Source: a virus (lineage: Duplodnaviria > Heunggongvirae > Uroviricota > Caudoviricetes). From it: a stretch of DNA of 9,188 nucleotides. Made by a program: the position numbers and the translations under genes. The notes beneath the pieces are model-generated. The model searched no databases, had not been told where the DNA came from, and saw only the letters and a list, made by a program, of their open reading frames with translations. The DNA is taken from IMG/VR virus record IMGVR_UViG_2711768069_000008. The stretch is one strand, 5' to 3'. Of the stretch, positions 2,940 to 3,383 are shown piece by piece. Position 1 is the stretch's first letter, and every line of letters starts with the position of its first letter.

Positions 2940-3383
2940 ATGTTATTGAAATACTTAAGAAACCTGATTGTAAGTGTTTTTTGCACCTTGTTCCTACTGA
3001 GGTATATCCCTCAGATGGGGCATGCTGACATACTTACAGCCTCCGGGGTTATTTCAACTGTATCCGGTATTTTATTTGGTTTTATTTTAGCCACAATATC
3101 AATTTTTAGTGCTGCTAGCGAAAACTCAAATGGAATAATAAAAGCATTAAAAAACAACAACATACTTCAAGTTATTATTGTAAATCTATTAACCGCAGGT
3201 GCATCTTTAATTACGGCATGCGTTATTGCTTTGATAGCAATGTTTGCCAATGAAAAGACATTGTTACATGGAGAAAAAATAGAATTTATTTTAATTATCG
3301 AATCGTTATCTCTTCTTATCATTTCAGTAATAACTTTTGCCTTTACATGGAGAAAAGTAAACTGGATACTCCCCCACATTTAA
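2940..3383 (+). CDS. small polytopic membrane protein, cassette gene B (147 aa, about 4 predicted TM helices)
   Basis: ATG at 2940 lies 3 nt after the gene A stop, with GAAGG 8-9 nt upstream (coupled operon). Hydrophobic stretches at roughly residues 8-22, 33-57, 74-101 and 113-136. All three Arg codons are AGA/AGG and there are 9 ATA codons. About 22% GC on line 3121-3180. Confidence 0.75.
   Translation: MLLKYLRNLIVSVFCTLFLLRYIPQMGHADILTASGVISTVSGILFGFILATISIFSAASENSNGIIKALKNNNILQVIIVNLLTAGASLITACVIALIAMFANEKTLLHGEKIEFILIIESLSLLIISVITFAFTWRKVNWILPHI

Follow-up and report, generated by a model that had tools for sequence, protein, structure and literature searches.

A four-helix membrane protein encoded between Q and the late promoter region of a lambdoid prophage is a probable RexB-type partner in a two-gene phage-exclusion module

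The DNA analysed here, called the window throughout, is a stretch of 9,188 nucleotides from a tailed-phage record (IMGVR_UViG_2711768069_000008, Caudoviricetes). Its gene B probably encodes the inner-membrane subunit of a two-gene phage-exclusion (abortive-infection) module of the RexAB type, carried as a moron by a lambdoid prophage; this reading draws on sequence comparison and on analogy with characterised systems. Gene B and its upstream neighbour, gene A, most likely represent a very divergent, so far unannotated branch of RexAB-type systems located at a new genomic position, the Q/pR' junction. The pair is a known kind of system and not a new kind, and the closest known system to B is RexB of phage lambda. 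RexAB is the oldest known abortive-infection system. An earlier note, made from the letters of the window, had put B forward as a candidate membrane-disrupting effector, coupled to gene A, such as sensor-effector abortive-infection systems employ, and had regarded superinfection exclusion or immunity as equally possible. Homology and gene context support the effector proposal and allow the pair to be placed in the RexAB-type class.

The window covers the early-right/late-control region of an enterobacterial lambdoid prophage, in which the phage genes occupy the minus strand (Table 1). The source is an E. coli lambdoid prophage. Genes A and B lie on the plus strand, opposite to the phage genes, within an insert of approximately 1932-3406. 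The GC content of this insert ranges from 0.29 to 0.41 and is mostly around 0.33, as compared with about 0.52 in the flanks; the insert is AT-rich foreign DNA. The cassette-free phage PhiR5_1 is homologous to the window up to about position 1931, where its own Q stop codon exactly falls; this sets the left boundary of the insert, which lies after the Q stop and before the late promoter and terminator. Upstream of A, a consensus scan revealed no convincing sigma-70 promoter; a TAAGG motif is found 6-10 nt before the ATG of A. At the other end of the insert, the stem of the strong terminator hairpin that separates the convergent B and Q genes is flanked by runs of A and T, with folding energies of -13.4 kcal/mol on the plus strand (z -4.0) and -13.0 kcal/mol on the minus strand (z -2.9). 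The foreign origin of the DNA, the presence of its own terminator and the orientation opposite to the late genes indicate that the pair is placed for expression independent of the lytic programme.

Table 1. Features of the window, with position, strand and remarks.
Feature	Position	Strand	Remarks
Rha-like fragment		-	phage gene in the window
304-aa gene		-	replication-initiator position; without Pfam match
IstB/DnaC-like loader	6479-7366	-	
DnaB-type helicase	5082-6482	-	
DUF968/HNH-like gene, 331 aa	3787-4782	-	
Antiterminator Q gene	3407-3784	-	PF06530, E 5.2e-52; right-hand neighbour of the insert
Bidirectional intrinsic terminator between convergent B and Q	3382-3405	both	10-bp stem, GAAA loop
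Gene B, 147 aa, four predicted transmembrane helices	2940-3383	+	RexB-like membrane partner (putative)
Gene A, 313 aa, DUF6731	1995-2936	+	RexA-like cytoplasmic partner, presumed sensor
Left end of the insert, upstream of A	1932-1994	+	presumed promoter region
Conserved pR'-tR'-like late-promoter/early-terminator region	1741-1931	-	follows Q directly in phages without the insert
75-aa gene	1513-1740	-	phrog_331, E 8.6e-25; immediately upstream of the DNA methylase gene, same strand
N6/N4 DNA methylase	304-1362	-	

The segment bordering the insert on the left (1741-1931) matches 73 phage records, including the region just after Q in PhiR5_1, and also a feature annotated as 'terminator' in SfV. 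Part of it is common to phage 434 (approximately 44.65-44.70 kb) and related lambdoid phages; by lambda coordinates, this stretch of phage 434 is the post-Q late-leader region. The non-coding segment of the window as a whole probably comprises promoter pR' with its short leader, and also tR'. At 1844-1856 lies a hairpin that resembles a terminator and has a T-run, its fold being weak (z -1.4), and a hairpin at 1908-1920 folds no better than shuffled sequences. The pair marks the Q/pR' junction of lambdoid prophages as a likely insertion site of defence cargo.

Several other features of the locus were recorded. The minus-strand genes of 5082-7366 form a compact replication module, in which the helicase and loader genes overlap by 4 nt (6479-6482) and the loader follows the preceding 304-aa gene after 1 nt. 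The DUF968/HNH-like gene adjoins Q in almost all related loci, and the replication genes further upstream vary, being O-like in E. coli fS25a and of the DnaB/DnaC type in the window. The constancy of DUF968 beside Q next to variable replication genes suggests that Q, DUF968 and A/B travel as one mosaic block. The 75-aa ORF beside the methylase gene is also kept in phage cdtI (orf55) and in fS25a; it is weakly similar to Ren-like exclusion proteins (phrog_142, E 0.018) and, also weakly, to winged-helix domains of the MarR/DnaD_N type.

The ORF of gene B opens with an ATG that is separated by a 3-nt spacer from the TAG stop codon of gene A (2934-2936), and a Shine-Dalgarno-like GAAGG motif lies within the end of A (2927-2931), 8 nt upstream of the B start. 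The short spacer and this motif make the close coupling of A and B, given as translational in the earlier note, plausible. Among relatives, A and B overlap by as much as 29 nt or are separated by as much as 21 nt, and overlapping reading frames occur in many of them.

The hydropathy profile of B (Kyte-Doolittle, 19-residue window) displays three strong hydrophobic segments at about residues 31-59, 76-103 and 116-137, with peaks of 2.2-2.5, and a weaker and shorter N-terminal segment (core 9-20, peak 1.7). The AlphaFold2 model (mean pLDDT 84.2, pTM 0.75) contains helices at 2-22, 28-62, 75-102 and 114-146 and a short helix at 66-72 in the central loop. ORF, hydropathy and model thus agree with the description of a 147-aa protein with about four hydrophobic helices given beforehand, three of the segments being strong and one weaker. 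The N-terminus, central loop and C-terminus together hold six K+R and one D+E, and the other two loops three K+R and four D+E. This distribution fits the positive-inside rule and predicts an N-in/C-in topology with a cytoplasmic central loop. The ENSNG motif (residues 61-65), which had been put forward as the conserved polar site, does lie in the central loop; however, it is less well conserved than K71, which belongs to an L-x-x-L-K-x-x-G motif and is the best conserved polar position of this loop across the wide family.

Full-length homologs of B have 144-163 aa and extend down to about 20% identity. Comparison of B with seven homologous genes gave a non-synonymous difference of 0.18-0.43 with synonymous sites saturated at 0.70-0.90, indicating that the frame is under purifying selection. 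Distant full-length homologs and purifying selection together show that B is more than a chance ORF. A word-indexed protein search retrieved B homologs down to 63% identity only, and an exhaustive profile search of 1.84 billion representatives retrieved just 25 clusters, all of 144-163 aa except for truncated sequences and one 836-aa match at threshold; the B family is small. The window's B is a full-length member of phrog_8552 (E 1.4e-63), which is annotated as 'unknown function'. It matched no family in Pfam, NCBIfam or PADLOC, apart from a sub-threshold match to Tmemb_14, and a Foldseek comparison of its model with the PDB gave nothing significant. A match of the model to NINJ1 (probability 0.96, E 1.2) was discarded as a generic helical-hairpin resemblance.

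We then compared B with RexB. The two proteins are of similar length (147 aa for B, 144 aa for lambda RexB), each has four predicted transmembrane helices, and each is encoded directly after its A or rexA gene. In size and predicted topology B corresponds to RexB proteins, with about 140-165 aa, four helices and cytoplasmic N- and C-termini and central loop. A single BLASTP comparison aligned residues 9-54 of B with residues 17-62 of lambda RexB, spanning TM1-TM2 (E 0.012). Alignment of 27 B-family with 16 RexB-family sequences by hhalign gave E 1.1e-4 and a probability of 56% over 62 co-linear columns, the probabilities of such comparisons ranging only from 36 to 56%. The aligned columns comprise the end of TM1, a loop with a common H-x-D, TM2 and the central loop, and the central-loop motif common to both families is L-x-x-[LI]-[KR]-x-x-G-x-[LM]. 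The PADLOC RexB model matched 7 of the 25 B-family members (best E 5.6e-6), one of these matches covering nearly the whole protein, as compared with at most two members for any other PADLOC model. In reciprocal HMM searches, real sequences ranked above composition-matched shuffled and reversed decoys, and 13 real RexB sequences appeared before the first decoy. Among BFVD structures, the second-best Foldseek match of the B model (probability 1.00, E 0.03) was a Mycobacterium phage Sbash protein of 165 aa, equated with gp31 (165 aa) by length only. Taken together, the sequence signal for RexB is weak, though it points the same way throughout.

These signals have to be set against several results. 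The window's B did not match the curated RexB profiles PF15968 and PADLOC PDLC02340 at E <= 1, on which the control lambda RexB scored 8.5e-92 and 8.6e-61. The Pfam RexB model matched only one of the 25 B members (E 0.032), and in the same Pfam scan numerous unrelated membrane families also received matches of E 0.002-0.1. Short hydrophobic proteins are prone to erroneous profile matches. Since membrane profiles are noisy, only one member matched the Pfam RexB model and the Sbash protein is equated with gp31 by length, homology of B to RexB is probable and not proven. The functional analogy, B occupying the same place in the same kind of pair as RexB, is better supported than homology.

The nature of gene A is consistent with such a pair. 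A scores above the gathering threshold of DUF6731 (PF20505; 41.3 bits for a cut-off of 27) and is a full-length member of phrog_7651; both families are annotated as 'unknown function'. Its predicted structure is a two-domain RexA/RdgC-like fold, for which fold comparison gave RexA as the best solved-structure match; the models of both proteins were built from shallow alignments of 10 and 23 sequences. RdgC, IML3 and CHL4 are listed among the structural relatives of RexA in the paper describing its structure (PMC11077077). Searches of A against PDB sequences by phmmer and hmmsearch returned nothing, RexA being found by fold comparison only, and RexA profiles were matched neither by the window's A (Pfam, PADLOC) nor by 13 A-family members. 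An invariant block of A, N-H-x-G-P-x-x-x-D-L, aligned with F-G-P-T-T-S-D-L of RexA (hhalign E 1.2e-3, probability 20%). In a supplementary table of DefensePredictor, the cluster 'RexAB~RexA' matches PF20505 (DUF6731) at 99.8% probability (PMC13092281), indicating that the link between DUF6731 and RexA is implicit in published data. We found no mention of DUF6731, PF20505 or the RefSeq protein accessions in the searchable text of papers. The same tables contain a 340-aa hypothetical protein of E. coli, WP_000654526.1, as a predicted novel defence gene; it is remotely similar (probability 95.8) to the RexA-labelled, DUF6731-matching cluster (PMC13092281), suggesting that E. coli may hold further Rex-like branches.

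The association of A with B was followed in both directions. Among A relatives at 38-62% identity in Escherichia, Pectobacterium and Vibrio (44% for E. coli, 62% for Pectobacterium and 39% for Vibrio among those examined), a B homolog of 147-150 aa was found directly after each, as an uncalled gene in one locus. Starting from distant B homologs, four of six look-ups showed a full-length A-type gene of 289-318 aa upstream, three of which reach the Pfam DUF6731 model; the remaining two were short contigs with an A-type C-terminus upstream. A B-family ORF (E <= 1e-5) lay directly downstream of A in 80 of 80 IMG/VR viral loci, with A relatives 43-100% identical, many of them near-identical and several identity tiers represented. 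Of these 80 loci, 72 also have a Q-like gene in convergent orientation, no more than 150 bp beyond the end of B.

A 1.65-kb stretch with the pair is present at 99% identity or more in 25 of 5,426 complete E. coli genomes. The cytolethal-distending-toxin phage cdtI encodes nearly the same two proteins, orf54 sharing 99.7% identity with the window's A and orf53 99.3% with the window's B, and Citrobacter braakii ATCC 51113 carries an A relative at 99% identity. Prophages with the pair were found in Escherichia, Klebsiella, Citrobacter, Pectobacterium, Yersinia, Xenorhabdus, Vibrio and Pseudomonas. Gene B has diverged more rapidly than A: loci whose A shares 87% or 82% identity with that of the window have a B sharing only 70% or 63%. 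A relaxed constraint on transmembrane residues or a diversifying pressure could account for the difference. In Escherichia phages vB_EcoS-733R5 and 716R3 (ON470608, ON470622), the A homolog, 87% identical, is annotated as 'portal (connector) protein', a label that is almost certainly a mis-annotation.

Genes beside integrases, cI-like repressors and defence genes stand in the usual places of defence cargo, and distant A/B pairs were found in each of these settings. Pseudomonas phage AUS531phi (MN585195) carries a cI-like repressor gene, then a DUF6731 gene (E 8.6e-13), then a gene for a B-family membrane protein, a gene order identical to the cI-rexA-rexB layout of lambda. In the annotation, the B-family gene of this phage (4297-4782) starts at a GTG and encodes 118 aa, which leaves out the first transmembrane helix. 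Read in a longer frame, which overlaps the DUF6731 gene at its end and has up to 161 aa, the protein would regain four helices. In Vibrio phage 10N.286.54.F4_PE001 (PQ189356, 1389-2896), a tailless PM2-like (Vinavirales) temperate element, A and B come right after the integrase gene, which indicates that the module moves between very different virus realms. Another A/B pair lies beside an integrase gene in a metagenomic contig. In metagenome contig ERZ27247094 (3103-6554), a distant DUF6731 and B pair adjoins a Shedu SduA_C gene, in a same-strand run that also holds an AAA_17/18 protein and a DUF5677 protein and looks like a defence island. The foreign base composition of the insert in the window, together with the Shedu gene and the integrases beside distant pairs, fits defence cargo.

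A paper of 2026 counts no more than five described Rex-like systems, and the membrane protein is the effector in four of them (PMC12894663). The growth-arresting effector is the membrane component in lambda, Sbash, CarolAnn and P. putida (PMC12894663, PMC6426596). The window pair differs from each of the described systems that we compared. Its sequence identity to lambda RexA/RexB is about 11-15%, and its position is also different: the lambda rex genes are located downstream of cI in the immunity operon and are co-transcribed with it, whereas the window pair is found after Q and before pR', in reverse orientation. RexA genes beside divergent RexB homologs were mostly broken or partial. Gp30 and gp31 of Sbash form a Rex-like pair encoded by overlapping genes, gp31 being a validated membrane effector of 165 aa with four helices; its central cytoplasmic loop is indispensable, and the substitutions R70A and D73A there inactivate the protein (PMC6426596). 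Unlike the window pair, which follows Q, the Sbash pair belongs to an actinobacterial phage, has a longer gp30 (372 aa) and lies near the lysis cassette, and hhalign found no sequence similarity between the A and B families and Sbash gp30 and gp31. RexABpp of P. putida prophage P1 (PP_5643/PP_5644) is located downstream of a cI-like repressor gene (PMC12894663). It displayed no obvious match to the DUF6731 and B families in a comparison limited to primer-deduced termini, and the primer-derived rexABpp sequences gave 0 matches in viral and metagenome contigs. Gp30 and gp31 of phage Butters are, like A and B, a cytoplasmic and a membrane Rex-like partner.

By extrapolation from lambda, Sbash gp30/31, CarolAnn gp44/43 and P. 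putida RexABpp, A and B would be made at a set ratio in the lysogen, with B silent. In characterised Rex systems, the counterparts of A are dimeric, non-specific DNA-binding proteins (PMC12894663, PMC6426596, PMC11077077). Upon infection by a second phage, A may sense a phage DNA-protein intermediate or a phage protein and would then engage the cytoplasmic face of B, probably at its central loop (residues 60-75, containing L-x-x-L-K-x-x-G). B would in turn oligomerise or form an open channel or pore, with a drop in membrane potential and ATP; growth would stop, and the cycle of the infecting phage would remain incomplete.

As the main rival reading, the roles of the two proteins could be reversed, A being a toxic or antiviral effector and B a membrane anchor that sequesters it until infection, in the manner of an immunity protein or antitoxin. 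The same two-gene anatomy fits this arrangement equally well, and there is a precedent in Butters, where the membrane protein sequesters the cytoplasmic effector (summarised in PMC12894663). A is moreover the better conserved partner (87% or 82% identity, against 70% or 63% for B). We nevertheless consider a reversal unlikely: the membrane protein is the effector in the majority of the described Rex-like systems, as given above, and the most conserved polar part of B is the cytoplasmic loop, where mutations of Sbash gp31 abolish defence, although an anchor would need such a loop too. The location of the pair between Q and the late promoter, facing it, raises the question of a regulatory role. 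Lambda RexA biases the cI/Cro switch by DNA binding. By analogy with this precedent, the DUF6731 protein, with B, might also act on the prophage's own late-gene switch or on lysis timing at the Q/pR' node, a role to which we give a small chance. If true, it would mean that a Rex-type module has been re-wired to a different checkpoint, or has a trigger and output that differ from those of every described Rex system.

B is a small polytopic inner-membrane protein in a prophage moron, as would be expected of a superinfection-exclusion protein of the Imm/Sie type that blocks phage DNA entry by itself, its linkage to A being mere co-regulation. This is improbable, as no B homolog was found without A upstream wherever the contig allowed the check, overlapping A and B frames are common among the relatives, the annotation of phrog_8552 names no exclusion function, and nothing similar to known Sie/Imm families was detected in Pfam, NCBIfam, PADLOC or PHROGs. 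The pair also resembles Kiwa, which consists of a four-helix membrane protein (KwaA) and a cytoplasmic protein of about 310 aa (KwaB). However, PADLOC Kiwa models were matched by neither A, B nor their families, the gene order is the reverse, with the membrane gene second in the window pair, and the best solved-structure match of A is RexA and not KwaB. A Kiwa-like system is therefore very improbable, and identity with Kiwa was rejected on the missing KwaA/KwaB profile matches and the reversed order. Least credible of all is a role of B in the lysis timing of the prophage itself, as a holin, an antiholin or another such protein, despite the small size and several transmembrane helices of B and a weak match of one distant family member to PF16079 (E 0.006), which falls within the noise of that Pfam scan. 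B is opposite in strand to Q and the late operon, with a terminator between them and no adjoining endolysin gene, and complete holin, endolysin and spanin sets occur elsewhere in related prophages. As the earlier note had stated, B is not in a lysis cassette: in closely related prophages, holin and endolysin genes are 2.7-6 kb away on the other strand. The holin assignment was rejected on the absence of a lysis-cassette position, of the late-operon strand and of a holin family match for the window's B.

The RexAB-type reading, which we favour, assigns an unannotated family pair, DUF6731/phrog_7651 together with phrog_8552, to the RexAB class. PADLOC misses the window's copy of both A and B. 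The pair is also carried by a sequenced toxin-converting phage (cdtI) and by a tailless PM2-like Vibrio prophage. The B family provides divergent sequences that bridge to RexB, and the central-loop motif common to the two families would be useful for testing the gating of RexB-type proteins by RexA-type proteins.
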